Of a DNA stretch of 18,319 nucleotides, positions 1 to 17,935 are shown piece by piece. Position 1 is the first letter of the stretch. Each line of letters starts with the position of its first letter. The translations under genes were made by a program, and so were the position numbers. Location of the stretch: IMG/VR virus record IMGVR_UViG_2695420565_000013, one strand, 5' to 3'. The DNA is from a virus (taxonomy: Duplodnaviria > Heunggongvirae > Uroviricota > Caudoviricetes). The notes under the pieces are model-generated. The model did not search any database, had not been told where the DNA came from, and saw nothing but the letters and a program-made list of their open reading frames with translations.

Positions 1-101
1 CCTCCGCTATGTCCTTGACGTCATAGCCGACTGGCCGATAAACCGGGTCGGCGAACTGCTCCCCTGGCGCGTAGCACTGCCGACTGAATAACACATCCCC
101 G

Positions 102-248
102 TCAATACGGTTCTTGCTGCACGCTTACGGAGATATTCACGCAGGGAAAATATCTTTCCCCCTCCGGTGTTCTCACCACGAAGCCGCACGACTCCGCTGG
201 CGCACATCGCCGGGCGTGCGCCAGAATCGCTGATTCTGTCTCTGTCAT
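102..248 (-). pseudogene. K: Tail tip assembly protein K (lambda gpK-like), N-terminal fragment only: 48 codons then TGA at 102-104
   Basis: ATG at 246-248 lies 5 nt after the L stop. Translation MTETESAILAHARRCAPAESCGFVVRTPEGERYFPCVNIS matches the lambda gpK N-terminus as I recall it, then diverges (VSVQQEPY*). No JAMM/MPN HxH motif follows in any frame. Confidence 0.55.
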
Positions 249-253
249 GGGAT

Positions 254-952
254 TCACTGCGAAAGTTTGTTAATGGAAAGGAAGCCGCCAAAGTTGCCGA
301 CGTTATTGCGAAACTTACAGCCGCTCAGGCATTTGCTGCATTTATCCTTCGTGATATCGGAGGTCGGCTGGTCATATTCATCCGCGACCGCCGGACCGTG
401 ATAACCGCACTCATCACCGCGATAGGTCCAGGTGCAGGTATTAGCCAGCATGATGCGCCCCGGAAAAACAGCGCCGTCCGTTTCCGTCGGCGTGGACAGT
501 ACAAAAGAGGCACTCACCGCGCTCAGTTCGCTGCACTGCTCGATGCGCCAGCGGCTGATCACCTCCTGCTCCGGATCGGCGTCACTGTTTCCGTTGACGA
601 AGTTCACCGCATCCAGAAAACGGGCGTAAACCTTACGCCGGACCACCGTTCCTCCGACCAGACTCTGCAGGTCTTCCGCCATCCCGGTGACCATGCCGTG
701 CAGGTTAGAAACCGTCAGTGTCGGACGGGCAGCACTGCCTTTGCCGTTCAGTTCAAATCCCGTCCCCTGAATGGGATACGCCTGATACTGTCGCCCCTGC
801 CAGGTGACCGGCTCACCTTTATCGTTCTGCTCATTACAGAAAAAATAACGTTCTCCACCGACCACTGTCAGATCGATTTCCCAGAGCACCACCAGGGCTG
901 ACTGAGTGAGGCGTGTCGTCTCATGATGTGTTTCCTGTGGAATATCCTGCAT
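254..952 (-). CDS. L: Tail tip protein L (lambda gpL-like, 232 aa, C-terminal Cys cluster)
   Basis: ORF of 232 aa, MQDIPQET...CSKCLSGCKFRNNVGNFGGFLSINKLSQ, near-identical in length and sequence to lambda gpL as recalled. AGGAG Shine-Dalgarno 6 nt upstream of ATG 950-952. Confidence 0.9.
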   Translation of the reverse strand: MQDIPQETHHETTRLTQSALVVLWEIDLTVVGGERYFFCNEQNDKGEPVTWQGRQYQAYPIQGTGFELNGKGSAARPTLTVSNLHGMVTGMAEDLQSLVGGTVVRRKVYARFLDAVNFVNGNSDADPEQEVISRWRIEQCSELSAVSASFVLSTPTETDGAVFPGRIMLANTCTWTYRGDECGYHGPAVADEYDQPTSDITKDKCSKCLSGCKFRNNVGNFGGFLSINKLSQ

Positions 953-961
953 CAGAGACTC

Positions 962-1291
962 CTATGCCACGACCTGTTCAAAATCTGCCGTTATGGTTAC
1001 CCACAACGCCCCCACGCTTGCCGACCATTTACGACAAACCACCCTGATCGGCTTCCAGTCATAAGGTGGCGTCCACTGAAATGCGCGGACGCCACCGTGC
1101 CGTTCCAGAAAGGCTTTTAAAGATGGGTGTTCACATTTACGAACACGTATCGTCACGCTGTAAATCGACAACTGGTTATTCAGTCCCGCCGCACGACGCT
1201 GTTCATAACCATCGCCCAGCTTCACTGTCACCACTTTCGGCTCTGATACCACATTCATATCCGGGCGCACTTTCCAGTGAAATGTCTCCAT
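962..1291 (-). CDS. M: Minor tail protein M (lambda gpM-like, 109 aa)
   Basis: METFHWKVRPDMNVVSEPKVV...FQWTPPYDWKPIRVVCRKWS...ADFEQVVA parallels lambda gpM (MKTFRWKVKPGM...EFEQVVN). The start ATG overlaps the upstream stop as TAATG. Confidence 0.9.
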   Translation of the reverse strand: METFHWKVRPDMNVVSEPKVVTVKLGDGYEQRRAAGLNNQLSIYSVTIRVRKCEHPSLKAFLERHGGVRAFQWTPPYDWKPIRVVCRKWSASVGALWVTITADFEQVVA

Positions 1292-2898
1292 TACCGATAT
1301 GCTCCACTTAACCGACCACCATCACGGGCCTGCTGTTGCATAAAGTCCGCTGCCGCTTTTTTCCCAAGGTCATAAACCACCTTCAGGGCAGCCGGACCTA
1401 TCTGCCCGTTCGTGCCATCGTTATTGATCTCGATGTTGTACTGCGGGGCAAACATCGCCATACCTGAACCACCAATATCCGCCACAACCCCCAGCTTACC
1501 GTCAGCACCACGACGCAGTGGCAGAATGGCTTCAGGTCCAGCTTCCCCCATCACACCCGCGCCTTTTGCAAAAGCAAAAAACGTCGGACGGTTAACCACC
1601 GTGCCACTGTAACGACTCAAATCAGCAGACTGATAAATCCCCCCATTGGCATTCAGGGAAAGGCTGCTGAGATCAAATCCCAGTACACTGCCAATCCCTT
1701 TTATCGATTTCATCATGGTTGCCTGCGCCAGGATTTTCGCCATATCTGACAGCACCGAAGAGGTGAAGGATTTGAAGTTGAGTTTGCCGGTAGTGACAAA
1801 AGTTGCCAGGCCATTTCCCATGTTGCTGAAGGCTGATGAGAACACCTGTTCTGCTGTTCCTGCCGTATTGTCTGCATCCACGGTAAAATCCTGAAATGCA
1901 CGCAGGACTCCGTTTTTCCAGTTACCCTGCACAACTTCAAGCTGTTGCCAGTAACGGCGATTCTCATTCAGTTGTCGGTTCAGGCTCTCCGTCAGCGCCT
2001 GCTCGGCCTTTCTGTAGTCATCCGTGTTATATGTCCCTTTCTGCTCACTATCCCGCCTCAACTGCTCCAGCTGTTGCTGGTATTTCTGGCGAAGACTCAG
2101 TTGTACCTGATATCGCTGCCGCTGCTGATCACCCATACCCACCGTGGCGATATCCAGGTCATGTTGCTGACGCTGAGCGCGCTCTTCTTCAGCCAGTTGA
2201 CTGGTCAGCTGAATTGTTTTTTTCTTCAGATCGTTGAGTGCCGTTTGTTTCTGAAGCTCCTGCTGTTTTACATCCAGCAGCGTCAGTGCCTGCATCAGTT
2301 CATCTTTACGGGCCAGCACACTCTTTTCATCTGCCGTCAGTTTTTTCCCGTCCAGATCGCTGATGCGCTGCTGCAGAGCCAGAAGCTGTTTATGCGCTTC
2401 TGTCATCTTTTCAGTGGCAATGCCTGCTGACTGTCTTGCAGCAGCAATCTGTCCTTCCACCTGTGCCTGTTGCTGACTGTACTGCAGCAATAACCGGGTG
2501 GCCTCATCATTACGGGTTTCGCGTGTTTTTTTCTTACCGGATGCCAGGGCTTTCTCGTAACGTTCATTTTCACGTTGTATCGCCGCATCCCTGACAGCCT
2601 GGTCGGCGTACTGCATGGCATTAATACGCGCAATTTCACGCTGATGTCGTGCTGCTTCCGTTTCATTCATCCGGTTCAGTGCAGCATTTTCAGCATTACG
2701 TCGTTTCTGTTGCTCCTGATAATTCCGCTCTGCCTGCTCTTTTGCATCCTGCAAATCCTTCTGGCGTTTTTTCTCCTGAAGATCGTTAAGACGCTGCTGA
2801 TCGTATTCAACCTGAGAAGATGATGCGTCTTTTCGCCCGCGATACTTTCTCCTGTAAAGCGGTAATCTGTTCATCCAGCGAGTCTTCACGACCAATAT
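1291..2898 (-). CDS. H: Tail tape measure protein, C-terminal portion; in +1 frame relative to the N-terminal portion (frameshifted, possible pseudogene)
   Basis: 534-codon open frame with a long coiled-coil (Q/E/K/R-rich) region and a Gly-rich C-terminus, ending by overlapping the M start. It has no plausible start of its own: the frame opens just after a stop at 2899-2901. Confidence 0.7.
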   Translation of the reverse strand: MLVVKTRWMNRLPLYRRKYRGRKDASSSQVEYDQQRLNDLQEKKRQKDLQDAKEQAERNYQEQQKRRNAENAALNRMNETEAARHQREIARINAMQYADQAVRDAAIQRENERYEKALASGKKKTRETRNDEATRLLLQYSQQQAQVEGQIAAARQSAGIATEKMTEAHKQLLALQQRISDLDGKKLTADEKSVLARKDELMQALTLLDVKQQELQKQTALNDLKKKTIQLTSQLAEEERAQRQQHDLDIATVGMGDQQRQRYQVQLSLRQKYQQQLEQLRRDSEQKGTYNTDDYRKAEQALTESLNRQLNENRRYWQQLEVVQGNWKNGVLRAFQDFTVDADNTAGTAEQVFSSAFSNMGNGLATFVTTGKLNFKSFTSSVLSDMAKILAQATMMKSIKGIGSVLGFDLSSLSLNANGGIYQSADLSRYSGTVVNRPTFFAFAKGAGVMGEAGPEAILPLRRGADGKLGVVADIGGSGMAMFAPQYNIEINNDGTNGQIGPAALKVVYDLGKKAAADFMQQQARDGGRLSGAYR

Positions 2899-4345
2899 TC
2901 ATGGCCGCATCCCAGAAACGACTCCACAAATCAGACAGATACTTCAGCGTACTGCCAAGCGCATTGAGGTTATTATCAATATCCGCAGTACGCCGACCGG
3001 TTTCCTCTGCCAGTGCAGACATGGCTATCCGTGCAGCATCACTGGACCGTCCCTGATCCCCAAGGACACGTATCTGCTCAAGCTGAGTGGCAGTAAGAAA
3101 ATGCAGCTCATTGTCCAGAGCCTTCGCGGCATTTACAGGATCATCCTTCAGCCGCTTAAACTGATTTATGGTATCGCTGACCGACTGGCCAACCGATCGC
3201 TCCATCTGTGCGGCAGCTCTCGCCACCATACCGATATCGTTTCCACGAAATGCACCACTCCCCACCACCTGCGCCAGCGCACCGGCTGCAGCATGTTGCG
3301 TGATACCATTCCCGGAAATAGCACGACTGAGCGTCCACAGCTGCCCGGCAGTGACTCCGGCATAATGCCCCGTCAGCGACAACTGGCGGTTAAATTCTTC
3401 CCCCTCCTTCTGACCGTCATACCAGGCTTTACCCAGACCATAGACGGCCGCGGCAATACCGCCAATAACCCCGCCAAGCATCATGCCTTTCGGTGACATC
3501 AGTGTGTCTATCCATCCGGCACGGTTAGCCAGCGTTATCCCGGATCCCCTCAGCGCCCCTAAATTGCCGCGGGCCAGTTCACCTATCAGAACGCCTATCT
3601 CCTGGCGGGCTGCTGCACTTTTCAGACCCAGCGAATGCGTGGCTTTTCCTGCCTGCTCCATTTTGCGGATATACACTTCTGCAGCACTGCTTACCCCCAG
3701 CTGGGCTGCCTTGGCACGAAGCAACTCAGAAGATGAAAGATTCTGGCGGGTTGCCTGCTCTTTAAGCTGACGGATAAACGCCACTTTCTGTCGGGTAGCC
3801 TCTTCCTCAGCCTGTGTAAGAACACGGGTTTTCGCAGTAACCTCAGAAATCAGCGCCAGATAATCCTGCTGACCAATCCCGCCACTGTTTCTGGCCTGTC
3901 GGATCTGCTGCTGAATACGCTGTAATTCCTGCAGCCCCGCACTGGCCTGTTTCACACTGTCAATCTGACGATAAAACGCAGCAGCCGCTTTATCCTGAGC
4001 CTCCGCCAGAGCCATGGCCTGCGCCTGTTCCTCGCGCATTTTCTGGCTCAGCGCCTCCATGCGCTGGCGGGTTTTCTCCACCTCGCGGGCCATGCGTTCA
4101 TGAGCCTGTGCGTTCTTCTCCACCGTCTGCGCATGGACGGATGCGGCTGTTGCAGCCGAAGAAGTCGCCTGCGTTGTCTGCCGGGCGGCCTGAGTCTGAC
4201 GCTCCATAAAACGCTGCATACGGGCAGACGACCGTTCTGCATCGCTGGCGGCACCATTCAGAAGGTTTTTGATACGGGGAATTTCATTTTTAAACTCTGC
4301 CGCATCAATCCCCAAATCAATGACCAGGTTGGCTATCTGGTCCAT
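2807..4345 (-). CDS. H: Tail tape measure protein, N-terminal portion (ends at TGA 2807-2809, 89 nt into the other frame)
   Basis: ATG at 4343-4345 preceded by GGAGGT (7 nt spacer). The product MDQIANLVIDLGIDAAEFK... has a coiled-coil N-terminus and a Gly/Ala-rich hydrophobic segment (GMMLGGVIGGIAAAVYGLG) typical of tape measure proteins. Position between G/T and M matches lambda H. Confidence 0.75.
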   Translation of the reverse strand: MDQIANLVIDLGIDAAEFKNEIPRIKNLLNGAASDAERSSARMQRFMERQTQAARQTTQATSSAATAASVHAQTVEKNAQAHERMAREVEKTRQRMEALSQKMREEQAQAMALAEAQDKAAAAFYRQIDSVKQASAGLQELQRIQQQIRQARNSGGIGQQDYLALISEVTAKTRVLTQAEEEATRQKVAFIRQLKEQATRQNLSSSELLRAKAAQLGVSSAAEVYIRKMEQAGKATHSLGLKSAAARQEIGVLIGELARGNLGALRGSGITLANRAGWIDTLMSPKGMMLGGVIGGIAAAVYGLGKAWYDGQKEGEEFNRQLSLTGHYAGVTAGQLWTLSRAISGNGITQHAAAGALAQVVGSGAFRGNDIGMVARAAAQMERSVGQSVSDTINQFKRLKDDPVNAAKALDNELHFLTATQLEQIRVLGDQGRSSDAARIAMSALAEETGRRTADIDNNLNALGSTLKYLSDLWSRFWDAAMNIGREDSLDEQITALQEKVSRAKRRIIFSG

Positions 4346-4679
4346 AACGCACACCTCCGGAAATACCTTCCCCAAGATGCATCAGTTCTTCGTCCGTTCG
4401 CTCCGGTATCCCGTTCTCTTCCGGTAAAAGGCTGAAATCAGCCACCGCAGCATCACTGCTGCCGGACACCATTCTCACGATCAATGCCTTCAGCGAGGCA
4501 AACTGCGCATCCATCCACACATCACTGAAGCTCTGCATCCGGAAATAATCGCCCCACTCACCAAGCTCAGTGGCCGACATTTCCGACAGCATCCGCCGCC
4601 AGTCTGCCCGCCGGAACTCCCGGGCAAGCCGCATGACAAACTGCATTTCCCGCGTCAGGACTTTTCCGGCGTCAGCGCC
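4317..4679 (-). CDS. T: Tail assembly chaperone T domain, probably made only as a G-T fusion by -1 ribosomal frameshift near the end of G
   Basis: The -1 frame relative to G is open from 4679 to 4317 and overlaps the last codons of G. Its internal ATG at 4646 has no usable Shine-Dalgarno. The arrangement mirrors lambda G/GT. The likely slip site is the A AAG lysine codon (mRNA CCGGAAAAGUCC; + strand 4658-4669). Confidence 0.55.
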   Translation of the reverse strand, partial: GADAGKVLTREMQFVMRLAREFRRADWRRMLSEMSATELGEWGDYFRMQSFSDVWMDAQFASLKALIVRMVSGSSDAAVADFSLLPEENGIPERTDEELMHLGEGISGGVRYGPDSQPGH

Positions 4680-5044
4680 TCATGCTCATCATCCCCGGCA
4701 TTATCAATGGCCCCCATACCGCTCAGCGACAGAACCATCTCCGCCCCCGCCCCCAGGGCATCATACGACCATGTTGTAATAACGGATGCGCAAAGCGTCT
4801 CTACATCCTTAGACTGATCCGCATTCCACAGTGAGCGGGAAACCAGCCAGGCATTGATATCCATCCCCATCCGCAGAAAAGCAATCTGTCGTTCAGCCTC
4901 CGGCAGTTCTCCCTCCCCGGCATCAAACTTTGCCGTTCGCTGCTGAACAAACGCCAGATATTCAATTCTCTGCAGCCCGGACAGCTCACTGAGCACCACG
5001 GACTGTTTTTCATAATTAAACGTGTCCTGTTTCAGAAACATCAT
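4655..5044 (-). CDS. G: Tail assembly chaperone G (lambda gpG-like)
   Basis: MMFLKQDTFNYEKQSVVLSELSGLQRIEYLA... versus lambda gpG MFLKTESFEHNGVTVTLSELSALQRIEHLA...; located between V and the tape measure gene. Confidence 0.85.
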   Translation of the reverse strand: MMFLKQDTFNYEKQSVVLSELSGLQRIEYLAFVQQRTAKFDAGEGELPEAERQIAFLRMGMDINAWLVSRSLWNADQSKDVETLCASVITTWSYDALGAGAEMVLSLSGMGAIDNAGDDEHEALTPEKS

Positions 5045-5057
5045 GTTCTACACCTGC

Positions 5058-5081
5058 AAAAAAGCCCCGGATAACCGGGGC
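5058..5081 (-). terminator. Intrinsic terminator between major tail gene V and G
   Basis: Minus-strand RNA reads GCCCCGG-UUAU-CCGGGGC (7 bp GC stem, 4 nt loop) followed immediately by UUUUUU. It sits 20 nt after the V stop and 14 nt before the G start. Confidence 0.6.
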
Positions 5082-5101
5082 AAATGATGAGTATCGTCCT
5101 G

Positions 5102-5845
5102 TTAACCTGCGGCGCTGACAGTCACCGCAGCCACAGCCACAAAATTCCCGTCAGCGGTCATGCCCACAATGCTGACACTGCCCTGCTTCACGCCTTTCAC
5201 CGTGGCCACAAGCCCGTTCAGGGTCACCGTGGCAGTCTGTGGATCTGACGAATGCACACTGATCGCTTTGTCACTGGCTCCGTCAGGTTTTACTGTAAAG
5301 GTCAGCGTGGTGGTTGCTCCCACATTGACACTGGCAGATGCCGGTGCCACCGTCAGCCCGGTAACGCCCACGATTTCAGTGCCTTCCTCTGCCAGATACG
5401 GACGCCCCACACCGCTGATTTTCACTGTGCGGGTCATCACGTCTTTTGAGGCAATGGTTTTACCCAGTGAACTCAGCCAGCCACGGAAAACATCAACAGT
5501 ACCGTTGGGATATTTGATACGAAAAGCGCAGACTTCACCGGAGTCGAACAACTGAACCAGTTTTTTCTGCCCGCTGTCCCCCGGACGCCAGGCCAGCGTC
5601 GCCGAAGTATCACCGACTGATTTCTGCCCCTGGGTTGTCGTTTTCCAGTCTGCATCTTCATCATCGAGATAAGTGTCATCTTCTGCATCAGCGGTCATTT
5701 CGCCAGGTTGCAGATCCTTCACCATCGCAAGACGCAGCCAGTCAGTGTCCGATAAAGGGTTCGCAAACGCATCGCCCTTGCCGGTATACATCCAGAACGT
5801 CGTTCCCGCACCTTTCGTTTTTGCCAGTGGATTTGGTGTGGTCAT
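5102..5845 (-). CDS. V: Major tail protein V (lambda gpV-like) with C-terminal Ig-like (Big_2-type) domain
   Basis: From ATG 5843-5845 (AAGGAGG 5 nt upstream): MTTPNPLAKTKGAGTTFWMYTGKGDAFANPLSDTDW...YLDDEDADWKTTTQGQKS...NGTVDVFRGW... closely parallels lambda gpV. The ORF-track extension upstream (MIMRWPP...) overlaps U and is rejected. Confidence 0.9.
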   Translation of the reverse strand: MTTPNPLAKTKGAGTTFWMYTGKGDAFANPLSDTDWLRLAMVKDLQPGEMTADAEDDTYLDDEDADWKTTTQGQKSVGDTSATLAWRPGDSGQKKLVQLFDSGEVCAFRIKYPNGTVDVFRGWLSSLGKTIASKDVMTRTVKISGVGRPYLAEEGTEIVGVTGLTVAPASASVNVGATTTLTFTVKPDGASDKAISVHSSDPQTATVTLNGLVATVKGVKQGSVSIVGMTADGNFVAVAAVTVSAAG

Positions 5846-5855
5846 TACCACCTCC

Positions 5856-6257
5856 TTAATTCGTGTACGTGATCTGGTACGTGATTTCCGCCATCGCCCA
5901 GGTGGCCATCTCATTATCACGTTGATAGTTAAAACCGAGTGGGATCAGGGTGTCGATGAGTCCGGAAAGTGCTGGTACATCATTCAGGGCCGGGAAAATG
6001 GTGCTCTCCATCCACATATCCAGCTCTGAATCCGGTGCCTGTGCCCGGATGAAGACAGCAATATGCAGAACAGCCTGCCAGTCATCTTCATCCGTCATTT
6101 TTCCGGTGTACTGAGCATCACTCAGCCACACCGCCACGGCAGGCAGTTCCTGCGCATCAACAAATGCCGGAAGCCCGTCAAAAAACGTGGCGCTGTCTCC
6201 ACACTGTTCCCGAAGGCGTGCCAGTACGACCTGGCGGATTTGTGTATGTCGGTTCAT
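5856..6257 (-). CDS. U: Tail terminator protein U (lambda gpU-like)
   Basis: MNRHTQIRQVVLARLRE...ATFFDGLPAFVDAQELPAVAVWLSDAQYTG...ELDMWMESTIFPALNDVPALS parallels lambda gpU (MKHTELRAAVLDALEK...ATFFDGRPAVFDEADFPAVAVYLTGAEYTG). ATG at 6255-6257 overlaps the Z stop as ATGA; an upstream ATG at 6269 is also possible. Confidence 0.85.
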   Translation of the reverse strand: MNRHTQIRQVVLARLREQCGDSATFFDGLPAFVDAQELPAVAVWLSDAQYTGKMTDEDDWQAVLHIAVFIRAQAPDSELDMWMESTIFPALNDVPALSGLIDTLIPLGFNYQRDNEMATWAMAEITYQITYTN

Positions 6258-6832
6258 CGGGTCAGCCATAACCTCAGTTGTTGTTTCAGTGCATACCCCA
6301 GCTGTTTCGGCATTTCCGCAGCAATGATGCGGTCGCGGGCATCTTCAAATGCCTGTGTCAGCGGTCCGGACAGCGGGATTTTCACCACATCAATGGGGTA
6401 ACGATTTTTGCCATCAATACGCCGCATCACATGCCAGCGACCATTCGCCAGTTGCTGAATAAACGCATCCCGGAAAAGATATTTACCCACCTTCAGCACA
6501 CTGCCACGGTACTGCAGTTTTCCACCACGCCGGGCCAGTCTGACCCGGGCTGTCCCCAGCTTAATGGCAGGCAGATTGCCCCGGTTAACGCGGATCCTGG
6601 CCGTCATTTTTCCTGACGGACTGGCTTTAAACACCCGGACACGCTGACGTACCAGTTTCAGGGGGATCCCTTTCACCTGGTTATCTCCCGCAACGGTATT
6701 CCCGGCAACCTGCCGGGTGGCAACCGAGACCGCTTTCTGTGCCACACGGTTTATCGCCCATGCGCTGGCCTGTGGCACCATACGGGTATCAAGGCTGTTC
6801 AGATTGCGGATGGCATTCTCAAGCCCCTTCAT
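6254..6832 (-). CDS. Z: Tail completion protein Z (lambda gpZ-like, 192 aa)
   Basis: 192-aa basic protein lying between the FII-like gene and U, as in lambda. AGAGG Shine-Dalgarno 6 nt upstream of ATG 6830-6832. Assignment rests on size, position and recalled family features. Confidence 0.75.
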   Translation of the reverse strand: MKGLENAIRNLNSLDTRMVPQASAWAINRVAQKAVSVATRQVAGNTVAGDNQVKGIPLKLVRQRVRVFKASPSGKMTARIRVNRGNLPAIKLGTARVRLARRGGKLQYRGSVLKVGKYLFRDAFIQQLANGRWHVMRRIDGKNRYPIDVVKIPLSGPLTQAFEDARDRIIAAEMPKQLGYALKQQLRLWLTR

Positions 6833-6843
6833 CCCACACCTCT

Positions 6844-7119
6844 TTACTCAATAAAGATCATTGGCTTACCGTTAAAGCGTTCATGCCGTGTGACCGTCCA
6901 TTGTTGTCCGTCATAAACAACGCGATCCCCGCGCCGTGGGCGGTATCCCGAAGAAAACACCACCAGAGAGACCGCAGGTCCGGACAGAGCATTCAGCTCT
7001 GCCAGTGTTTCTCCCGGGATCACAGTCATATCGACATCATTAATCGAGGCTGTCTTTCCCATCTTTCTGACCGTGATAGCATCCATACGCGCTGCCAGCC
7101 GGGAAAAGGGATCAGACAT
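6844..7119 (-). CDS. Head-tail joining protein (lambda gpFII-like)
   Basis: 91-aa protein with ...MGKTASI...VVFSSG...RRGDRVVYDGQQWTV..., resembling the gpFII pattern (..MGTSATI.....LFV....RRGD.L.......W.V). Position immediately before Z. Its start overlaps the upstream gene by 8 nt. Confidence 0.55.
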   Translation of the reverse strand: MSDPFSRLAARMDAITVRKMGKTASINDVDMTVIPGETLAELNALSGPAVSLVVFSSGYRPRRGDRVVYDGQQWTVTRHERFNGKPMIFIE

Positions 7120-7435
7120 TGAGTTTTACCGGCACTTCTTCTGCACTGGTTCCGGCATCTGCCCAGACAACCCCGACCAGCGGATCAGAGCCGCTGTTAG
7201 TCAGCTGAACTTTTCCGGACTTCAGATAAACCTTCTTACCCGTTTTCATGTCATCCGTTTTCAGCTTAGGCAGCATAAACACACCTTCGGTCATGCCGTC
7301 GCCTGTTTCACCCTGTGGAATATCGGTCAGCGCCACCGCAAAAACATCGCCCACCTGCACCAGATCTCCGCTGCTGATGGCTGCACTGGCAACAATCGCC
7401 ACCGTTTTTCCTTCTTCTACAAAATTCTTTGCCAT
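7112..7435 (-). CDS. Small head-associated protein, DUF2190-like (107 aa)
   Basis: ATG at 7433-7435 with GGAGA 5 nt upstream: MAKNFVEEGKTVAIVASAAISSGDLVQVGDVFAVAL...GKKVYLKSGKVQLTN.... The ORF-track TTG start at 7480 is rejected. Composition and position (just after the capsid gene) fit DUF2190 proteins; function unknown. Confidence 0.5.
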   Translation of the reverse strand: MAKNFVEEGKTVAIVASAAISSGDLVQVGDVFAVALTDIPQGETGDGMTEGVFMLPKLKTDDMKTGKKVYLKSGKVQLTNSGSDPLVGVVWADAGTSAEEVPVKLNV

Positions 7436-7477
7436 AACTGTCTCCGCACAGCCCCGTTCAGGGGCTGATTTCAGGTA

Positions 7478-7498
7478 CAAAAAAAGCCCTTACGGGCT
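7478..7498 (-). terminator. Intrinsic terminator immediately after the capsid gene
   Basis: Minus-strand RNA AGCCC-GUAA-GGGCU (5 bp stem, GNRA-type tetraloop) followed by UUUUUUU, 24 nt after the capsid stop codon. A second U-less hairpin (CAGCCCC-UGAAC-GGGGCUG, + strand 7449-7467) lies just upstream of the next gene's Shine-Dalgarno. Confidence 0.5.
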
Positions 7499-7521
7499 AT
7501 CAGAGTTGTTGTCTGCGACGT

Positions 7522-9480
7522 TTACGCCGTACATTTCACCAGACCGCGGTGATCAACTGGCGCGACACCGGCGTCAATACGCACTTTCGTTGTCACGCCA
7601 TCCACACTGAAGCCCTCCATCTGATCAATATATGGCGTATCCACACCGTTGAGATAAGCCACTTCAATCGTATCGGAGCCTTTTGACGCAGCCAGGTAGA
7701 AGGTGGTCTGGCTGTTATCATCAAGACGAGGCTCTGCAATAACGGTCGCAAAATCTTTCACCGGGTTAATAATACCGGCGTTAATGTCAGCCCCCTTGAC
7801 ACTTGAGGAGCGAATGACCTGGTTAGCAACAGACTCCATCGCCGTCGGTACCAGTACGAACGCAGGACGAATATTCAGATGACGCTCCCCCTCTTTCTGA
7901 ACGCGCATCAACTGGCGGGCTTTATCCAGCGATGCCACATCCATTGCAGCGCTCTCCAGTACGTTTGCATGTTTCGCTTTATCGAACAGACTTACATTAT
8001 CTGTGGAGATTTTCGGGTTAGACGTCAGAATGGCATAAACCAGATCGGCAATAGTGGATTTCGCCGCACGGCCCAGTTTCATCGGGACATCGGTCAGCAT
8101 ATTCAGATCATCATTGATAATGGCCTGACGGGTGATACTGAACAGCTCGCCATAGGTCGCCAGTGCAATAGTGGCCTGTTTATCTCCGGTGGTGACGTAT
8201 TTATATTCCGCCCCTTCACGCACCTGACGCAGAGCACTGAAGCCCCCCATACCCACACGATGGGCAATTTTAAAATCAGACAACTGACCTTTCCGCGTCC
8301 ACTGTTCATAGGTTTCAGGGGCATCTTCCCAGCCCTGCAGAATGGCTTTGTTCGCAACATCCAGCAGAATATTACCGAAGTCAGACGTACTGTGTGTGAA
8401 CGCCGCACCGACCATCTGCATCGGGTTATAACCGGAAACCCCAATACCCCGTTCAGTTAGTGACATACGGGCATATTCACGCAGGGTCATCCCGTTGTAG
8501 ACATTATCACGTTCGGTTTTTTCAAATCCGGCACGCGCCATCAGCGCCTGGCGAATCCCGTCCCCCACAAAATTACCGTTACCGGCATAAATATGAGCCG
8601 GGGTATTTTTATTGGATGGCGTGGACTCGCGCCCCATCTCGTTCAACAGCTTTTCACGGGCCTGCTCCAGCGAACATTCAGGATCGGCAAGACACTGAGC
8701 CTGCAGCGTCTGATAACGCCCGCCAAACATGGCAAACAGATCATTAATACCGTTTACACGCGCTTTTTGCTCTGCCAGTACCTGCGCACGGATGCTGTTT
8801 TCATCCACCACGGGTGCTGCTGCCTGCACTGGCGTCCAGGAGGCTTCAGATTCATTATCCTGTACGCGTGGAGCACTGTTGCGTGGCGGAGTAATCATGT
8901 TTCGAATGGATTCCGGCATCTTTTTAAATTCCTCTGTACGTTTTGACTGAATACATGCCATTGCCTTAACGGCTGGCGTTACCTGATCAGCAAATCCATG
9001 TGCCAGACATTCGGCACCGGACATCCAGGTCTCATCCGCCAGCATGGCAGCAATTTCATCGGTGGTTTTCCCGGTTTTCTGTGCATAAGCGGGTAACAGA
9101 ACCGCCTCAACTTTATCGAGCAGGTCGGCATAGGTGCGCATGTCCTCCGCATCACCGCCCGTAAAGCCAAATGGTTTATGAATCATCATGAAGGTGTTTT
9201 CCGGCATAATGACCGGGTTTCCTACCATCGCAATGACCGACGCCATTGACGCCGCCACACCGTCGACATAAACGGTAATGGACGCACCATGTGTTTTCAG
9301 CGCATTAAAAATGGCGATGCCTTCAAAGACATCGCCACCCGGTGAATTAATATGGAGATTAATGTGGGTGATATCGCCCAGTGCATTCAGATCACTGATA
9401 AACTGCTTCGCTGTAACACCCCAGAAACCAATCTCGTCATAAATATAAATATCCGCGTCACTCTGGTGACCAGCCTGCAT
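7522..9480 (-). CDS. Prohead protease (ClpP/S14-like) fused to HK97-fold major capsid protein (about 652 aa)
   Basis: The N-terminal ~200 aa have ClpP-like motifs (IYIYDEIG..., INSPGGDVFEG..., GVAASMASVIAMVG, MMIHKP). A long central linker and a C-terminal ~300 aa capsid-like region follow. Start placed at ATG 9478-9480 (13 nt after the portal stop) rather than the ORF-track start, which overlaps the portal; the start is uncertain. Confidence 0.75.
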   Translation of the reverse strand: MQAGHQSDADIYIYDEIGFWGVTAKQFISDLNALGDITHINLHINSPGGDVFEGIAIFNALKTHGASITVYVDGVAASMASVIAMVGNPVIMPENTFMMIHKPFGFTGGDAEDMRTYADLLDKVEAVLLPAYAQKTGKTTDEIAAMLADETWMSGAECLAHGFADQVTPAVKAMACIQSKRTEEFKKMPESIRNMITPPRNSAPRVQDNESEASWTPVQAAAPVVDENSIRAQVLAEQKARVNGINDLFAMFGGRYQTLQAQCLADPECSLEQAREKLLNEMGRESTPSNKNTPAHIYAGNGNFVGDGIRQALMARAGFEKTERDNVYNGMTLREYARMSLTERGIGVSGYNPMQMVGAAFTHSTSDFGNILLDVANKAILQGWEDAPETYEQWTRKGQLSDFKIAHRVGMGGFSALRQVREGAEYKYVTTGDKQATIALATYGELFSITRQAIINDDLNMLTDVPMKLGRAAKSTIADLVYAILTSNPKISTDNVSLFDKAKHANVLESAAMDVASLDKARQLMRVQKEGERHLNIRPAFVLVPTAMESVANQVIRSSSVKGADINAGIINPVKDFATVIAEPRLDDNSQTTFYLAASKGSDTIEVAYLNGVDTPYIDQMEGFSVDGVTTKVRIDAGVAPVDHRGLVKCTA

Positions 9481-9493
9481 CCTGAACCAGGAA

Positions 9494-11002
9494 TTATTCT
9501 TCGGACTGGTCGTCGGTGTGCTGCGGCTCCTGTCGTTTCGTTGCGGCACTACTGCCTCCTTTATCACTGGCCGGATCGGTATCAAATACCAGATCCAGCT
9601 TGCGGTTTTCATCAATTTCGGCCTTGCGCCGACGTTTGACATCATCCGGATTACGACCACCAGCACGTACCCAGTCTGATTCTGTCGCCGCTCCACCACG
9701 AATCTGGATTTTCCAGGCCTCAGCCTCCTTAACAGGGTCAATCCACGGCATCACTGGTCCGGAATACACCGCGGTATACAGTGAAGAACGGTCAAGATCG
9801 CGGGGTAGCCTGATAACACCGGATGCCACAGCCTGTTTCAGCCATGCACGATACATCGGGCGGGTGACGGCACCAATAAACCAGTCCTGCAGGATCAGGT
9901 AGCCATCAGTGGATTCAACCAGCTCCTGACGCTGGGCGCTGTAAGTGCCGTTATAGTTGCGCGCTGTACTGGAAAAACTCAGACGACTGCCCGCCGCCAC
10001 GGCACGCAACTGACCATTACGAAAAGTTTCAAGGTTAGGATTGGGGCGATCCGACTTCACCATTCCGATTTCTTCGCCGGGTTTCAGATCGTCGTAAATA
10101 ATGCCCGGCTGAATGGTAAGCTCACGTTCATTCTCCTTTCTGCCATTACCATCCGGTTCATAGCTCTGCCCGTCGCCTTTCCGGATGTACATCCCCAGAG
10201 CAGCGGCGATCCTTGCTGCAGTCAGCTCAGAATCTTCATATTCTTTCAGGGCACTGAGGCGGATCAGCACACCGGACAACAAAGACGTCCCGCGCATCTG
10301 GTGCAGACGGCGAACAAATTTAAGATGCAGCATTCGCTCTGCATCCACTTCTTTGGTTTCCATCTGCCGTCCGGATACGGGACGGCTTTTATACACCAGA
10401 TATTTTTCGGGACGCCCCCAGTCATCAACAAACACGCCCTGATTCAGCCTGTTGCTCTCATCACTAGTCATGGGAATAAAGTCCGGCTCGAGCGCCTCCA
10501 GCCAGAAATGAACACCGGCAGAAGGCGCCAGGCTGTTTATGCGCCCGGAAACCATCTGGGCAAACACCTCACCATCGCGCAGCCAGGTACGAAGCATCAG
10601 ACGTTCCAGCATCGGACGGGTAAACTGCCCGGTGACTTCCGGGCTGACAGACCATTCACTCCATCGGGTGCGAATCTCCGCAGCCAGGTCACGGGCAATG
10701 GCCCCATTGCGTAATACCGGATGTGGCTCGACAATAATCCCGTTTTTCCCCACCACCCGTTCTTCCAGCTTGTCAAATACACCAATAACCAGATCGTGGT
10801 TGTTATCAAGGTAACGGGCCTGCTCACGTAACGACACGGCCCCGTACTGGCTTAACTGGTCGGCAGTTCGGTTCTCCCGTCGGGCTTTGTGTGTCCGCGT
10901 CGTTTTTACGGCCTCATAAGCCTGGATCACCGCACGGGAACGCAGCCTTGCCGCTTTCCATCCTGGTGAAAAAACGCCAATCACATCATCAAGAATTGCC
11001 AT
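9494..11002 (-). CDS. Portal protein (502 aa)
   Basis: Large ORF directly after gpW and before the protease-capsid gene. ATG at 11000-11002 overlaps the W stop (TGATG) and is preceded by GAGG (5 nt spacer). The ORF-track GTG start at 11074 would overlap W by 73 nt and is rejected. Assignment by size and synteny. Confidence 0.8.
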   Translation of the reverse strand: MAILDDVIGVFSPGWKAARLRSRAVIQAYEAVKTTRTHKARRENRTADQLSQYGAVSLREQARYLDNNHDLVIGVFDKLEERVVGKNGIIVEPHPVLRNGAIARDLAAEIRTRWSEWSVSPEVTGQFTRPMLERLMLRTWLRDGEVFAQMVSGRINSLAPSAGVHFWLEALEPDFIPMTSDESNRLNQGVFVDDWGRPEKYLVYKSRPVSGRQMETKEVDAERMLHLKFVRRLHQMRGTSLLSGVLIRLSALKEYEDSELTAARIAAALGMYIRKGDGQSYEPDGNGRKENERELTIQPGIIYDDLKPGEEIGMVKSDRPNPNLETFRNGQLRAVAAGSRLSFSSTARNYNGTYSAQRQELVESTDGYLILQDWFIGAVTRPMYRAWLKQAVASGVIRLPRDLDRSSLYTAVYSGPVMPWIDPVKEAEAWKIQIRGGAATESDWVRAGGRNPDDVKRRRKAEIDENRKLDLVFDTDPASDKGGSSAATKRQEPQHTDDQSEE

Positions 11003-11220
11003 CAGAACCTCGCCAGCCGGTACCCGGGATGCCCCCGTCGTCGTGTAATCAGAGCCGCAAGGCGGCGCTCCCACTCCTGCCGTCCCTGCCGGATCTCAGA
11101 TAAGTTTTCCATGGTCATCTGCTGACCATTAAAGGTGACGGATTTTCCGTCCAGCACCGCCATTTCAGCTTCCGTATAACGCTGAATCATGGCTTCGATA
11201 TCATTCTGGTTCATAACCAT
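11002..11220 (-). CDS. W: Head-tail joining protein W (lambda gpW-like)
   Basis: About 70-aa protein ending ...ALITRRRGHPGYRLARF, compared with lambda gpW ...QTGMTQRRRGPAGFYV. Lies between terminase large subunit and portal as in lambda. Start ATG overlaps the TerL stop (ATGGTTATGA). Confidence 0.7.
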   Translation of the reverse strand: MVMNQNDIEAMIQRYTEAEMAVLDGKSVTFNGQQMTMENLSEIRQGRQEWERRLAALITRRRGHPGYRLARF

Positions 11221-13310
11221 CCTCCGGAAGTCAGCCAGGGGTTAACATCGTCAGTTACTGTTTTCTTCCGTTTTTGTTTTTTAACAGGCGTGGATACCGG
11301 TTCCGGTGAGGATGACGGTTCGGTACTGTCCTGGACACACTCCAGCCAGGTCTCCCGGCTCGCCCACTCCGGTGCATCCGGCCAGCGGATCTTTTCGTAT
11401 CCATGCAGAATGACCAGAGCCTCGGCATACACCATCAGGTCAAAAGCTTCGTTGGCACCGCGACCCGGCTTACTCCATTTCCCGTCACTGCTCCGCTCTT
11501 CATACGTCAGTTCGTCGTAAAACCAGCTCCCCAGCCAGTCAGGGAAATGCACATAGCCTGGACCTGGCGAGTCACGCCATAACGCGTTATTCACCCGGTC
11601 TTTCAGGGCATCCGTCTGAAGAAGCCAGAGCGGCACATCACCTGCGGCCTGCGCCCGGCGGCCCGTTCGTCCGGTGTTATCAGGGAATGTACGGCTGATC
11701 AGTTTTGCGCGCCGGATGCTGTCACCCTTAAACAGGTAAATACGTTTACCAAGGCCATCACGACGGCAACGACGCCAGAATTTATAGGCATTATCAGTGA
11801 CCCCGTCTTCACCGCCGGAGTCCACCGCCATTGCCATCAGTCGCATTTGTTGAGAAGGATCGGAGGCCAGCGCCCAGCTTTTATGAAAAACATCCGTCAG
11901 CAGGACATCCCAGTCTTCCGGATAGCTGGCCGGATCAATTCGCTGGCTCTCCCCGTCGCAGTCACTGCGCAATGACTGCGTGATGTTGTAACGATCAATA
12001 ATCCAGCGTTCGCCACGACTGCCATAGCCCGTTACCTGAACCACAAAACGGCGATGACGTCCCGCCTGCACATCCACTGTCGCCACAAGGAAATTAACGC
12101 CATCCGGCACACTGCGGGAAGGAACTGGCTCTGCCCGCTGCTCAAGCAGTTCACTTTTTCGTTGCTCCATGCTGGCACGAGGAAGATAAGGCAATCCCCA
12201 GTCGGTGTTGATAACCGCCCTGAGTGTTTCTTCGCTTCCTGTCGCTTCATACTCCTGTTCTGCAGTCAGTAATTTGTAAACCAGTTGCGCCCAGGTCTGA
12301 TACGCAGCAGCTGGCCCTTCCATCCAGAAACTGGCGATACGGGAGCGGCGCGGTTCACCGGAAACGTTGCCGTTACGATCAATGACCTGACCTTCACGCA
12401 ACCAGACTCCTGCACTATTGAGCTCACGCTTTTTCTCCGCAGTGATAATGCCGCTGCAGTGCGGGCAAAGTAGATACGCCGCCTCACTGGCTTTAAAGGG
12501 ATCCGGTTCATTACGGTAGCCGGTCATGGCATCCATGGCTGGCTGAAAATATTCACCGCAGTGCGGACATGACCAGTACCAGCGGCGGCGGTCACCACGA
12601 TTGTAAAGGGAAAGAATACCAGTCGTCGGTGGCGCTTCATGAGGCGACTTACGTCGCCATTTGCTGTCGCAGATGTCACGTCCCGGCGAGCTCTCCACCA
12701 GAGTCATCCCAGCGGACATAAATGTGGTGGTACGTTTTGAGGCCAGGGAGAAACCATCACCCTCGCTGTCGATATTCTCCGGAAAACGGTCGTAATCGGT
12801 TAAGGCGACAAACCGGTAATCCGACGACGACATAATGTTGACCGAGGGCCAACCAATTTTAAGGAACGAGCCATCCCTGAACGTCTTATCATGGACATTA
12901 TTGTCGTTACGACGTGGACTCATTCTTTTCTTTACCGCCGCACTGCTTCTGAACGTTCTGTCGAGGCGCTTTTTAGAATGCTCGCGGGCCTTATCTTCGG
13001 TCATCTGCACAACGAGCATGTCCGAAGGATCGCAAACGATGGTATAGACAATCCATCCATCGATCAGACCAATGGTCTTCCCTGTTCGCGCAGGACCAAC
13101 AAAAATCACCGCATCGTATTCACGCGATGCCAGGCAGTTCATGGGCTCAATGATGTAGGGTGTCAGTTCAGGATCCCATGGCACCGAGTTACCAGCCCCC
13201 TTGGGAACACGCATGAATTTTTTAACAGCCTCCGAAATCGGCATGCGACGTGGTGGGGAAAATCCTGCCGATATGTCCCTTCCCAAATTTCGGGCTGATG
13301 AAAAACCCAT
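11211..13310 (-). CDS. Terminase large subunit (699 aa)
   Basis: 699-aa ORF with Walker A-like motif VGPARTGKT and paired Cys motifs (CPHCGEYF...CPHCSG). AGGAGG Shine-Dalgarno 4 nt upstream of ATG 13308-13310. Directly follows the small subunit gene. Confidence 0.9.
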   Translation of the reverse strand: MGFSSARNLGRDISAGFSPPRRMPISEAVKKFMRVPKGAGNSVPWDPELTPYIIEPMNCLASREYDAVIFVGPARTGKTIGLIDGWIVYTIVCDPSDMLVVQMTEDKAREHSKKRLDRTFRSSAAVKKRMSPRRNDNNVHDKTFRDGSFLKIGWPSVNIMSSSDYRFVALTDYDRFPENIDSEGDGFSLASKRTTTFMSAGMTLVESSPGRDICDSKWRRKSPHEAPPTTGILSLYNRGDRRRWYWSCPHCGEYFQPAMDAMTGYRNEPDPFKASEAAYLLCPHCSGIITAEKKRELNSAGVWLREGQVIDRNGNVSGEPRRSRIASFWMEGPAAAYQTWAQLVYKLLTAEQEYEATGSEETLRAVINTDWGLPYLPRASMEQRKSELLEQRAEPVPSRSVPDGVNFLVATVDVQAGRHRRFVVQVTGYGSRGERWIIDRYNITQSLRSDCDGESQRIDPASYPEDWDVLLTDVFHKSWALASDPSQQMRLMAMAVDSGGEDGVTDNAYKFWRRCRRDGLGKRIYLFKGDSIRRAKLISRTFPDNTGRTGRRAQAAGDVPLWLLQTDALKDRVNNALWRDSPGPGYVHFPDWLGSWFYDELTYEERSSDGKWSKPGRGANEAFDLMVYAEALVILHGYEKIRWPDAPEWASRETWLECVQDSTEPSSSPEPVSTPVKKQKRKKTVTDDVNPWLTSGGWL

Positions 13311-13318
13311 TATTCCTC

Positions 13319-13846
13319 CTAGAGACTCTCTCCTTCCTCATCAGGAATTAATTCAGCAGCACAAGCCTCGTAGGATTTTTCCTGAAGAGTGTATCGCAGG
13401 TCATCAATGGCCTGCTGTACAACGCCGACGGCCTGAGGAGTCAGGGCGCAATCGCGTTCAAGAACATCCGGAATTGTCTCCAGAACCTGGACGACAGCCT
13501 TTCTCATGGACGAATAGACGATGACTACTTCATCAACGGGGATGAGTTTTCGCTGCTCCTTTTCCAGCTTGATCCTTTCATTTTCAGATTGGTACCAGTC
13601 CTTTCTCTCTTTCGGCTCCATACGGGATGGATCATGAACAGAGTCTGCTGCCTCATGCTTCACACTAAACAGGGCTGGCCCGACATGCTGCAGGGCGTAA
13701 ACGGGGTTCCCCCTGACAGTCGCAGCCACAGGAGTGTTAGCCGCGAGGAGCCGTTTTTTTACTGTGTCCCGGTGAAGCCCAAAGGCCTCAGCGATTTTAA
13801 AAACACTCCAGTAATAAGCATCACCGATCCCGCTCACATTTGACAT
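13319..13846 (-). CDS. Terminase small subunit (about 175 aa)
   Basis: Start placed at ATG 13844-13846 (GGAG, 6 nt spacer), giving MSNVSGIGDAYYWSVFKIAEAFGLHRDTVKKRL... with an N-terminal helix-turn-helix-like segment. Immediately upstream of the large subunit. In K-12 the Qin gene at this position is the pseudogene nohQ. Confidence 0.7.
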   Translation of the reverse strand: MSNVSGIGDAYYWSVFKIAEAFGLHRDTVKKRLLAANTPVAATVRGNPVYALQHVGPALFSVKHEAADSVHDPSRMEPKERKDWYQSENERIKLEKEQRKLIPVDEVVIVYSSMRKAVVQVLETIPDVLERDCALTPQAVGVVQQAIDDLRYTLQEKSYEACAAELIPDEEGESL

Positions 13847-14070
13847 AAGCAACTCCATCTGGCAGGTGAAAATCATGTTTATTTATATATTTCAATTAAT
13901 TGCAAACTGGTCTAATGACAGGGAGAAAGAAATATTGTACAGGTGAAAAGAGAAATAACTTTTAATTATCAATAAATTACCAAACATGCTGCCGCCGCCA
14001 TGGAAATGCAAAAACTAGCCTTTTTCCGCGACGCTCCCGCCCGTGGCAGGGGCCCCCACCGGGAGGACCC

Positions 14071-14094
14071 GACAGCCTGACAGCCTGACAGCCG
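14071..14094. repeat. Three tandem copies of GACAGCCT (third copy GACAGCCG) inside a GC-rich island
   Basis: Read directly: gacagcct gacagcct gacagccg at 14071-14094. Preceded by GGGGCCCCC and CCGCCGCC elements (about 13990-14070), in an otherwise AT-rich 540-bp non-coding region upstream of the terminase genes. Confidence 0.6.
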
Positions 14095-14229
14095 TGATGA
14101 GCATCTGATACAGCGCTTTACATAATGGCATAGGAATAATTCAGAAGGACATCACAGCATGCCCACACAAATTAGTGTGAGTGTCCTGTTTCTTCCTACG
14201 CACAGGACTGACGAGCATGAGGGGAAAAT

Positions 14230-14397
14230 ATGCGAACCATAAATGCCTCATCTTCAGCAATGCAACCGGCATCCGAACAGGACGATATTGTAAATTCACC
14301 TAATTACGAGGACATTGCAGTAGTTGAATTGCAGCTCTGTATTAGCCTGACAGTGACAGAATGCGATATTGACTCTGTCACAGGTGAAATAGTTTGA
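14230..14397 (+). CDS. Hypothetical small acidic protein (55 aa); speculative
   Basis: ATG 14230 preceded by GAGGGG (about 6 nt spacer). Encodes MRTINASSSAMQPASEQDDIVNSPNYEDIAVVELQLCISLTVTECDIDSVTGEIV. Below the ORF-track size cutoff. No recognised family. Confidence 0.25.
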   Translation: MRTINASSSAMQPASEQDDIVNSPNYEDIAVVELQLCISLTVTECDIDSVTGEIV

Positions 14398-14417
14398 ATG
14401 ATTAGCAGTTATGGTGC

Positions 14418-14624
14418 TCAGTCAACCACCAGGGAATAATCCTTCGAATTCTTATCGTGCTTCACCAACGCTGCCTCAATTGCCCTGAATGCTTCCAGAG
14501 ACACCTGATGTTCTATACATGCAATTACAACATCCGGGTAACTCATAGAAATGGTGCTATTAAGCATATTTTTTACACGAATCAGATCCAACGAGACTTC
14601 ATCAGCAGATTGTTCTTTATTCAT
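14418..14624 (-). CDS. ynfO: Small hypothetical protein (68 aa) at the position of Qin ynfO
   Basis: ATG 14622-14624 with GGAG 7 nt upstream: [26 protein letters not shown].... Symbol assigned from synteny with the K-12 Qin order (nohQ-ynfO-ydfO-gnsB-ynfN-cspI) as I recall it; sequence identity not checked. Confidence 0.55.
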
Positions 14625-14924
14625 TTTGTCGCTCCATGCGTTTGCTCGTCATCTAGCGGTTAAAATATTACTTCAAATCTTACTGCATAAAAGAGGAAAA
14701 GTATGAAAGTTTGAGTACATCGACCTTACATACATCTGTCGGTTGCATATCCCTCCTGGATGCCAGCAAGGCTCAATTTTGTTACGCAATCAACACTATT
14801 CATTAAAAACAGGCTTAATATTTGACATAAATCATCAACAAAACACAAAGAGGTCAGACCAGATTGAAACAATAAACACGATAATGCTAACTACGCGCCA
14901 TCGTATCACATGGAAGGTTTACCA

Positions 14925-15335
14925 ATGGCTCAGGCTGCCATTTTTAAAGAAATATTCGATCAAGTGCGTAAAGATTTAAACTGTGAATTATTTTATTCTG
15001 AGCTAAAACGTCACAATGTCTCACTTTATATTTACTATTTAGCCACAGATAATATTCACATTGTGTTAGAAAACGACAACATAGTGTTAGTAAAAGGACT
15101 CAAAAAGGTTGTAAATGTTAAATTCTCCAGAAACAAACATCTTATAGAGACCTCCTATAATAAGTTGAAATCAAAAGAAATCACATTTCAACAATACAGG
15201 GAAAATCTTGCTAAAGCAGGAGTTTTCCGATGGGTTACAAATATCCAGGAACACCAAAGATATTACTATGCCTTTGATAACTCATTACTATTTACTGAAA
15301 GCATCCAGAAAACTACACAGATCTTACCACGCTAA
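14925..15335 (+). CDS. ydfO: DUF1398 family protein (YdfO/YbcV-like, about 136 aa)
   Basis: Only plus-strand gene in the island. Start placed at the second ATG (14925; GGAAGG 7 nt upstream) giving [18 protein letters not shown]...; the ORF-track start is 14910. Size and position match YdfO/YbcV (DUF1398) of lambdoid prophages. Confidence 0.6.
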
Positions 15336-15486
15336 ACCATAACGTCCGGCTTCTCTCACTCCTGAGCCGGACTGCATTGGTTTAATAAAAACCATCAACA
15401 ATTGTGATTTAGATATTCGGAACCATTCAAATATAACAAAACCCCGTAAAAACGAGGTTTATGGATAAATTTTATTATTGAATACA

Positions 15487-15660
15487 TCAGATTAAATTAA
15501 TCTTGACATCATAGCTTTCAAGACCCGTCATTTTTTCCCGTGCGGTAAACTGAATACTGGTAACTTCTTTCCCGGTCTTTTTCTTAAGTTCAATAATTTT
15601 TTTTGTTATATATTCAGAAATATCTGCTTCTGCTTTTGTTTTTAAGTTTTCAATATTCAT
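15487..15660 (-). CDS. gnsB: GnsA/GnsB family protein (57 aa)
   Basis: Not in the ORF track (under 60 aa). Reverse-complement translation: MNIENLKTKAEADISEYITKKIIELKKKTGKEVTSIQFTAREKMTGLESYDVKINLI, versus E. coli GnsB as recalled MNIEELKKQAETEIADFIAQKIAELNKNTGKEVSEIRFTAREKMTGLESYDVKIKIM. AGAGGA Shine-Dalgarno upstream; an in-frame ATG at 15661-15663 is an alternative start. Confidence 0.75.
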   Translation of the reverse strand: MNIENLKTKAEADISEYITKKIIELKKKTGKEVTSIQFTAREKMTGLESYDVKINLI

Positions 15661-15831
15661 CATTTCCTCTTTTAGTCTGTTATGACTTTCCAGTTACACA
15701 GTAAGTCGATTATATGGTGCAAACGTGTAAAAGATAAGATGAAACATCGCAATAATCAACATACGATAGTCTAAATTTTACACAAACAGACAAAGAGAAT
15801 TTTCCTGAATTATCAATACAATAGCATCAAA

Positions 15832-16062
15832 TCAACTCAAGAGCCTTATTGCTGCTTCCAGAATTTCTTCTGAAGTAACATGTCGATCCGCGGCTACATA
15901 AATGACTTTATGATCTCCGGTCAGAGATGGAAACCCTGCGGCCATTACAGTAAGGTGTGTTTTTTCGCCATTTGGATATTCACGCATGATGGTGTTAACT
16001 CCAGTCATCGCTGGCACTACCACTGCTGGTTCAGAGTTAAAAAAAACTATGATTTTTTTCAT
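15832..16062 (-). CDS. ynfN: Small hypothetical protein (76 aa) at the position of Qin ynfN
   Basis: ATG at 16060-16062 (the ORF-track TTG start at 16104 is rejected): MKKIIVFFNSEPAVVVPAMTGVNTIMREYPNGEKTHL.... Symbol from synteny only (between gnsB and cspI). Confidence 0.5.
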   Translation of the reverse strand: MKKIIVFFNSEPAVVVPAMTGVNTIMREYPNGEKTHLTVMAAGFPSLTGDHKVIYVAADRHVTSEEILEAAIRLLS

Positions 16063-16106
16063 GATGTTACCGTAGTATGTGAGTATCCATCGAATAGATA
16101 CCAAGC

Positions 16107-16127
16107 AAAAAAGCTCCCGAAGGAGCC
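16107..16127. terminator. Hairpin with tetraloop flanked by T-runs on both strands (bidirectional terminator candidate)
   Basis: Minus-strand RNA GGCUCC-UUCG-GGAGCU followed by UUUUUU; the plus strand reads GCTCC-CGAA-GGAGC followed by T-rich sequence. It lies about 205 nt downstream of the cspI stop and about 45 nt upstream of the ynfN-like start. Confidence 0.55.
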
Positions 16128-16333
16128 TTCATTTTCACTTTTTTAAATCCAACGACAGACGGCTGGCATTTAAGTATTGTGAAATATTATCAAATGTAAT
16201 CATCATTGATTTACAAAAGATACATTTTGCCCCGAAAGGATTCATGTCAGAAACATCAAAAGATGATGTTCTATACTGGGAACCATGACAACACGGGCAT
16301 CTAAAGTGAATATGGTTTGTAATATTGTCTACC

Positions 16334-16907: not shown

Positions 16908-17931
<1,024 letters not shown>

Positions 17932-17935
<4 letters not shown>

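Follow-up and report, generated by a model that had tools for sequence, protein, structure and literature searches.

ISEc22 in tail gene K of a Qin-like lambdoid Escherichia coli prophage and recurrent IS66-family insertion at the same site

Phage lambda requires the K gene product for tail-tip assembly, as is established by lambda genetics, and gpK combines a JAB/MPN domain with an NlpC/P60 domain. Defective lambdoid prophages that are disrupted by IS elements are also known in Escherichia coli, examples being cryptic prophages of the Qin type and those that IS elements have inactivated in pathogenic E. coli. Here, we describe an 18,319-bp stretch of lambdoid prophage DNA (the window) in which K breaks off against foreign DNA derived from ISEc22, a member of the IS66 family with the relatives ISEc23, ISEc8, and IS679. 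With high confidence, the ISEc22 right end at K reflects a simple insertion that splits the gene rather than a deletion, and the contig broke inside the element. Related elements occupy the same site in other prophages, and the site is a likely insertion hot spot.

The foreign DNA at the left of the window comes from ISEc22 and represents its right end (Table 1). Bases 1 to 135 have matches in 2,813 chromosomes and plasmids of E. coli, almost all at 99 to 100% identity and with every match ending at 128-129, and the matching records are annotated as 'IS66-like element ISEc22 family transposase' or 'tnpC'; judged by sequence, the match of bases 1-128 to this ISEc22 end, at 99 to 100% in over 2,500 E. 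coli replicons, is not a chance one. The 29-residue tnpC fragment (the open reading frame [ORF] ends ...LRYVLDVIADWPINRVGELLPWRVALPTE) matches PF13817 (DDE_Tnp_IS66_C) over profile positions 17-39 of 39 with an E value of 6.7e-6 and 26.6 bits, a score under the 30-bit cut-off because the fragment is incomplete. In strain 64.1 (L001), where the annotated tnpC stops at the equivalent base, the full-length TnpC at this junction has both domains of an IS66-type DDE transposase, PF03050 (5e-107) and PF13817 (9e-17). Full copies at the same K site, in strain 64.1 and on a second draft contig (L004), have the tnpA-tnpB-tnpC organization, which lies outside the window.

The terminus and the target duplication are likewise those of ISEc22. 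The window element has the expected end (5'-GTAAGCG...), finishing with ...GCACGCTTAC at 128, the reverse complement of GTAAGCGTGC; the inverted repeats were compared as left end GTAAGCGTCGTCTCAGCACCGTCT versus reverse complement of right end GTAAGCGTGCAGCAAGAACCGTAT, and the left end reads GTAAGCGTCGTC both in strain 64.1 and on a 4,378-bp contig, CYDC01000125.1 (L089). The element boundary is at 128/129, where the identity to K ends; the C at 128 is common to intact K and the IS terminus, and the BLAST break is therefore at 127/128. One copy of the 8-bp duplication is in the window and the second is on CYDC01000125.1, and perfect 8-bp duplications are present at all distinct ISEc22 insertion sites with both ends resolved (14 of 14).

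On the phage side of the boundary, window 128-1300 shows 100% identity to numerous prophages of E. coli that have an intact 247-residue K, annotated as 'C40 family peptidase'. In the late operon, gene L, labeled 'phage minor tail protein L' in relatives, directly precedes K; on the minus strand, L terminates with a stop codon at 254-256, and the K ATG follows 5 nt later, at 248-246. Codons 1-40 of K (MTETES...YFPCVNIS, window 248-129; full reading MTETESAILAHARRCAPAESCGFVVRTPEGERYFPCVNIS) are the same as in the intact K of close relatives. This fragment matches PF14464 over residues 3-39 (E = 4e-5, with 23.9 bits, under the 25-bit cut-off) and the tail families PHROG 30, 4199, and 2635 with E values of 1e-17 to 1e-20. 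Intact K has Pfam Prok-JAB/MPN (residues 4-98; E = 2.2e-14) and NlpC/P60 (residues 111-224) domains, and after PCVNIS it continues as GEPEAYFRMSPEDW...ALVHSHPGGLPWLSETD, the latter (residues 65-81) being the HxH...S..D part of the JAMM motif.

Table 1. Features of the window and IS66-family insertions at the K site
Feature	Position in window	Strand or orientation	Details
ISEc22 right end	1..128	+	IS66 family; complete copies are 2,454 bp; window begins 128 bp inside the element
tnpC 3' end	2..91	+	last 29 codons (...LPWRVALPTE) and TAA 89-91
Right terminal inverted repeat of ISEc22	105..128		imperfect, ~24 bp; outer end ...ACGCTTAC, reverse complement of GTAAGCGT
8-bp target duplication, right-hand copy GGAGATAT	129..136		partly K codons 38-40; flanks both IS ends in L001
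K 5' fragment	129..248	-	codons 1-40, N-terminal part of Prok-JAB/MPN domain; 100% nucleotide identity to intact K
Truncated ORF K'	102..248	-	40 K codons, 8 IS inverted-repeat codons (VSVQQEPY), and TGA 104-102; 48 codons
Tail gene L	254..952	-	232 aa, intact; ORF list; PHROG 18 minor tail protein, E = 1.6e-151
Tape-measure gene	1291-4345	-	1,021-aa gene split by 11-bp frameshift into a 512-aa ORF and ~487 aa
Site a, ISEc22	128/129 (exact window site)	window orientation	duplication GGAGATAT; 6 avian-pathogenic strains
Site a, ISEc22	128/129	opposite orientation	duplication GGATATAT (that K allele); 4 complete genomes (GF8 group)
Site a, ISEc23	128/129	window orientation	duplication GGAGATAT; 1 complete genome (23CRST030)
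Site a, ISEc23	128/129	opposite orientation	duplication GGAGATAT; 6 complete genomes (1446/AZ/REF2 group)
Site b, ISEc22	4 bp left of site a		duplication CTGCAGAG; 7 complete genomes
Site c, ISEc22	21 bp right of site a		duplication ATATCTTT; 2 complete genomes

The truncated product K' retains the place of gpK in the tail operon between L and I, with K' 5 nt past L and with distal K sequence followed by I and J on CYDC01000125.1. It keeps the glutamate of the E19-x-CG motif, and the HxH...S..D residues lie beyond the break, such that the full E...HxH...S..D signature of the N-terminal JAB/MPN domain, present in the intact relatives, is missing, as is the C-terminal NlpC/P60 (C40 peptidase) domain, which is found across the IS on CYDC01000125.1 (PF00877). 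K' is thus a gene fragment and not a functional gpK-like member, because the JAB/MPN metal-binding motif is lost. The identical 48-aa product has been called on L004, and a 51-aa GTG-start version is not on record; scanning of window 1-600 gave no promoter or terminator above the shuffled expectation. It is scarcely credible that K' is a natural short variant of K, or that its stop is a sequencing error past which a K-like protein continues; nothing was found in support of this, the sequence left of 128 has no K similarity in any frame and is 100% ISEc22, and the intact relatives differ from it immediately after PCVNIS.

An earlier note on this DNA, made without database searches, had anticipated much of this. 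Its reading of K as starting 5 nt after L, matching gpK through PCVNIS, and running to a TGA at 102-104 after 48 codons agrees with the sequence, as does truncation, with 40 genuine codons followed by foreign DNA. The ~128 bp that it took to be of different origin are 99 to 100% identical to the ISEc22 right end, the breakpoint that it placed near 126-131 is exactly at 128/129, and the search for IS ends at about 100-130 that it proposed finds the ISEc22 terminus at 128. The missing JAMM/MPN motif is accounted for by the HxH...S..D part not being in the window. The 3' end of a plus-strand ORF that it reported is real, with the TAA at 89-91 and not at 88-90.

Position 1 of the window is a contig end, because contig CYDC01000071.1 (18,317 bp; GCA_001285425.1) starts at the identical base. 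We recovered this contig using the truncated tape-measure product of the window as a lineage marker, and it matches window 1-14345 at 100% identity (14,345 bases compared); GCA_001285425.1 is a sister assembly (an 18,317-bp contig versus the 18,319-bp window) for which derivation from the same isolate is not demonstrable. The window ends inside ISEc22 because short-read assembly could not pass a multi-copy element. Ends within repeats are typical places for misjoins, and a chimeric contig in which an IS end is fused to a K gene that is really intact would look similar in this respect. We regard such an artifact as exceedingly improbable, however, given that the same junction is present in an independent assembly and in long-read complete genomes, and that the reciprocal left junction, with a matching 8-bp duplication, is in the same assembly; a misjoin would not yield a precise duplication.

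The single junction visible in the window would, taken alone, leave a deletion possible, and the earlier note had proposed loss of most of K, and presumably of I, J, and the tail fibre genes, through a deletion or recombination event; this could occur by IS-mediated adjacent deletion or between two ISEc22 copies. We therefore consider the left junction, for which we predicted an ORF composed of 31 residues from the ISEc22 left end and K residues 39-247. The fusion ORF was built on the K alleles of the closest uninterrupted prophages, and the version with the strain 64.1 allele was a positive control and was found. Versions with the K-distal alleles of L005, L002, and MEI003 have no match in look-ups, a result that favors deletion, and all 216-aa GTG-start forms are similarly without a match. 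However, the fusion ORF with the B1_2/DEC9B K allele is on record (WP_374195485.1) and is encoded by CYDC01000125.1, which belongs to GCA_001285425.1, the same assembly as the window-identical contig. Shown in the window orientation, CYDC01000125.1 ends ...GGCTCACC GGAGATAT and then GTAAGCGTCGTCTCAGC..., with the 112 nt that follow GGAGATAT being the ISEc22 left end. Encoded on it are K residues 39 to 247, I, and a J gene that the contig end cuts short; these have 99.86% identity to L005, and the match to L005 stops exactly at the base equivalent to window 136.

Both copies of GGAGATAT and the retained K-distal, I, and J sequences therefore indicate simple transposition and not deletion, although this two-junction proof comes from two separate contigs of the sister assembly. 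Strain 64.1 has a full 2,454-bp ISEc22 at the same K position with GGAGATAT on both sides, and beyond it lie the remainder of K and the genes I, J, lom, and stf (tail fibre). The K insertions resolved in complete genomes, six in total, are each simple, have perfect 8-bp duplications, and leave the tail module downstream intact; the E. coli collection contains no complete genome of the window lineage. The loss of K-distal, I, and J sequences claimed in the earlier note is contradicted by their presence on CYDC01000125.1, and we consider deletion or recombination to be very unlikely. In the simple insertion that we favor, ISEc22 (tnpA-tnpB-tnpC; 2,454 bp) would have transposed into K at codons 38-40 and duplicated the 8-bp target GGAGATAT, and the window shows the right-hand junction only, with the last 128 bp of the IS, the duplication, and K codons 40 to 1 (minus strand).

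We note that a 240-aa ORF starts at an ATG within the left end of ISEc22 and fuses the 31 IS residues to K residues 39-247 (L001, 6043-6765; L089, 22-744). These putative fusion ORFs are labeled by RefSeq as intact 'C40 family peptidase' proteins (WP_374704724.1 and WP_374195485.1), and the predicted product would be without the N-terminal Glu of the JAB domain.

Splitting of K would leave the first 40 JAB/MPN residues, with the conserved Glu among them, on one side of the IS and the HxH...S..D residues and NlpC/P60 domain on the other. The insertion would also put 2.45 kb, with tnpC transcribed convergently to K, into the late operon ahead of I, J, lom, and stf. No functional tails are expected, because K is required for lambda tail-tip assembly, and we infer that a prophage with a split K is likely tail-defective; the insertion may also be polar. 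The tail defect suggested in the earlier note thus probably stands, as K is still split. In addition, comparison with L005 shows that the window is without 11 bp (CGTCCAGGGGA) between 2826 and 2827 in the tape-measure gene. This deletion is common to 8 contigs from several samples and therefore serves as a genuine lineage marker rather than reflecting a read error; it is present in 0 of 5426 complete E. coli genomes. It would constitute a second, independent tail-inactivating lesion. We also observed that two Logan contigs of the same lineage (L075 and L076), from independent assemblies, break at window 2358 in the tape-measure gene with ~29 unmatched end bases, which suggests either an additional variant or a repeat that a second prophage also carries.

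Insertion at this position in K is recurrent. The exact window site (site a) is occupied in 17 of the 5426 complete E. coli genomes, and together with sites b and c (Table 1) it defines a region at window 125-157, corresponding to K codons ~31-41 (loci L001, L003, L006, L082, L083, L084, L043, L078, and L079). IMG/VR contains ISEc23 ends at site a (L078 and L079) and ISEc22 at site b (L043), with no exact ISEc22 site-a junctions, left or right; searches of species-representative genomes and metagenomes for the pattern of an IS66 terminus, a gap, and a K anchor gave only chance matches. The use of different elements and of both orientations excludes the spread of a single insertion, and at least four independent events have therefore occurred at the same phosphodiester bonds. 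The window prophage is 1.8 to 2.5% divergent from the avian-pathogenic E. coli (APEC) prophage with the same junction, with the first mismatch 34 bp from the junction, whereas it is 99.9% identical to uninterrupted relatives, and the window lineage therefore probably represents a fifth event at site a, as judged from these sequence distances. As controls, only one pair of sites falls within 100 bp among 52 distinct ISEc22 flanks in IMG/VR, and, of the 55 distinct right-end flanks of ISEc22 collected across IMG/VR and the complete-genome loci, only one falls in K apart from these events. We conclude that the K site is likely, although not certainly, a base-pair-precise insertion hot spot for IS66-family elements.

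Several candidate causes of the hot spot were considered and rejected. The ISEc22 target consensus, derived from 55 right-end and 19 left-end flanks, is weak and palindromic (nnWTAWnn, with G two bases beyond the duplication), and the K site fits it poorly, position 4 of GGAGATAT being G, the base least often found there. As single-stranded DNA, the target in intact K forms small hairpins (z = -3.9), and 6-bp palindromes overlap both site a and site c. As a general rule, however, hairpins do not hold, because, of 10 ISEc22 targets outside K, a single one overlaps a stem of at least 5 bp (versus 14% in a random control), and the K allele at site b has no palindrome. Comparison by eye of the K target with the IS inverted repeats yielded nothing convincing. 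The literature searched contains no description of K as an IS66 target or hot spot. If true, the hot spot points to an undescribed feature of target choice by IS66-family transposases, and a natural hot spot in K could serve as a defined substrate for studying IS66 target choice, which is poorly understood.

At its right edge (18213-18319), the window runs into the terminus of an IS3-family element (TGAACCGCCCCGGGTTTCC...) that has inserted into a lysis-region gene of the ydfR/DUF1327-like type, and strain F8704-2 has an IS3-family copy in the same ydfR/DUF1327-like gene, ~50 bp away. The window is thus a short-read contig with repeated IS elements at both edges. Between them, window 128-18212 is 99.9% identical to the uninterrupted prophage L005 (strain OkiPb01717), with 7 mismatches over 18 kb, and there are single-base length differences at window 14039 and 16591 (in a C-run and an A-run) that are probably intergenic. 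The prophage is Qin-like and lambdoid and is decaying through IS insertions and a small frameshifting deletion; its 99.9% identity to the uninterrupted relative indicates that this decay is recent. IS insertion into a structural gene of a prophage, seen at a contig end, is a known and routine kind of decay, and in related complete genomes this junction already carries labels from annotation pipelines. A gene that ends at foreign DNA on the edge of a draft contig should accordingly be read as an IS junction before a deletion is proposed. The recurrent, base-pair-precise use of the K site by IS66-family elements may be the sole item of novelty.

Among known systems, the visible part of the element does not differ from ISEc22, sharing 100% nucleotide identity over 128 bp, the tnpC C terminus, the GTAAGCGT/ACGCTTAC terminus, and the 8-bp duplication, although the window holds only its last 128 bp. 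The K gene has the same place after L as that of lambda, and its first 40 residues are those of the intact K of the closest prophages, which is 98 to 99% identical over its full length to the K proteins ('tail tip assembly protein K') of mEp460 and Ayreon, both functional lambdoid phages. In contrast to lambda gpK, the window gene is split after codon 40, and its 48-aa product is without HxH...S..D and the whole of NlpC/P60. The prophage resembles Qin-type cryptic prophages in its lysis and cold-shock genes (cspI, cspB, rrrQ, and essD) and in its IS insertions, ISEc22 in K and an IS3-family element in ydfR, but unlike the Qin prophage of K-12, it keeps a complete head and tail module.
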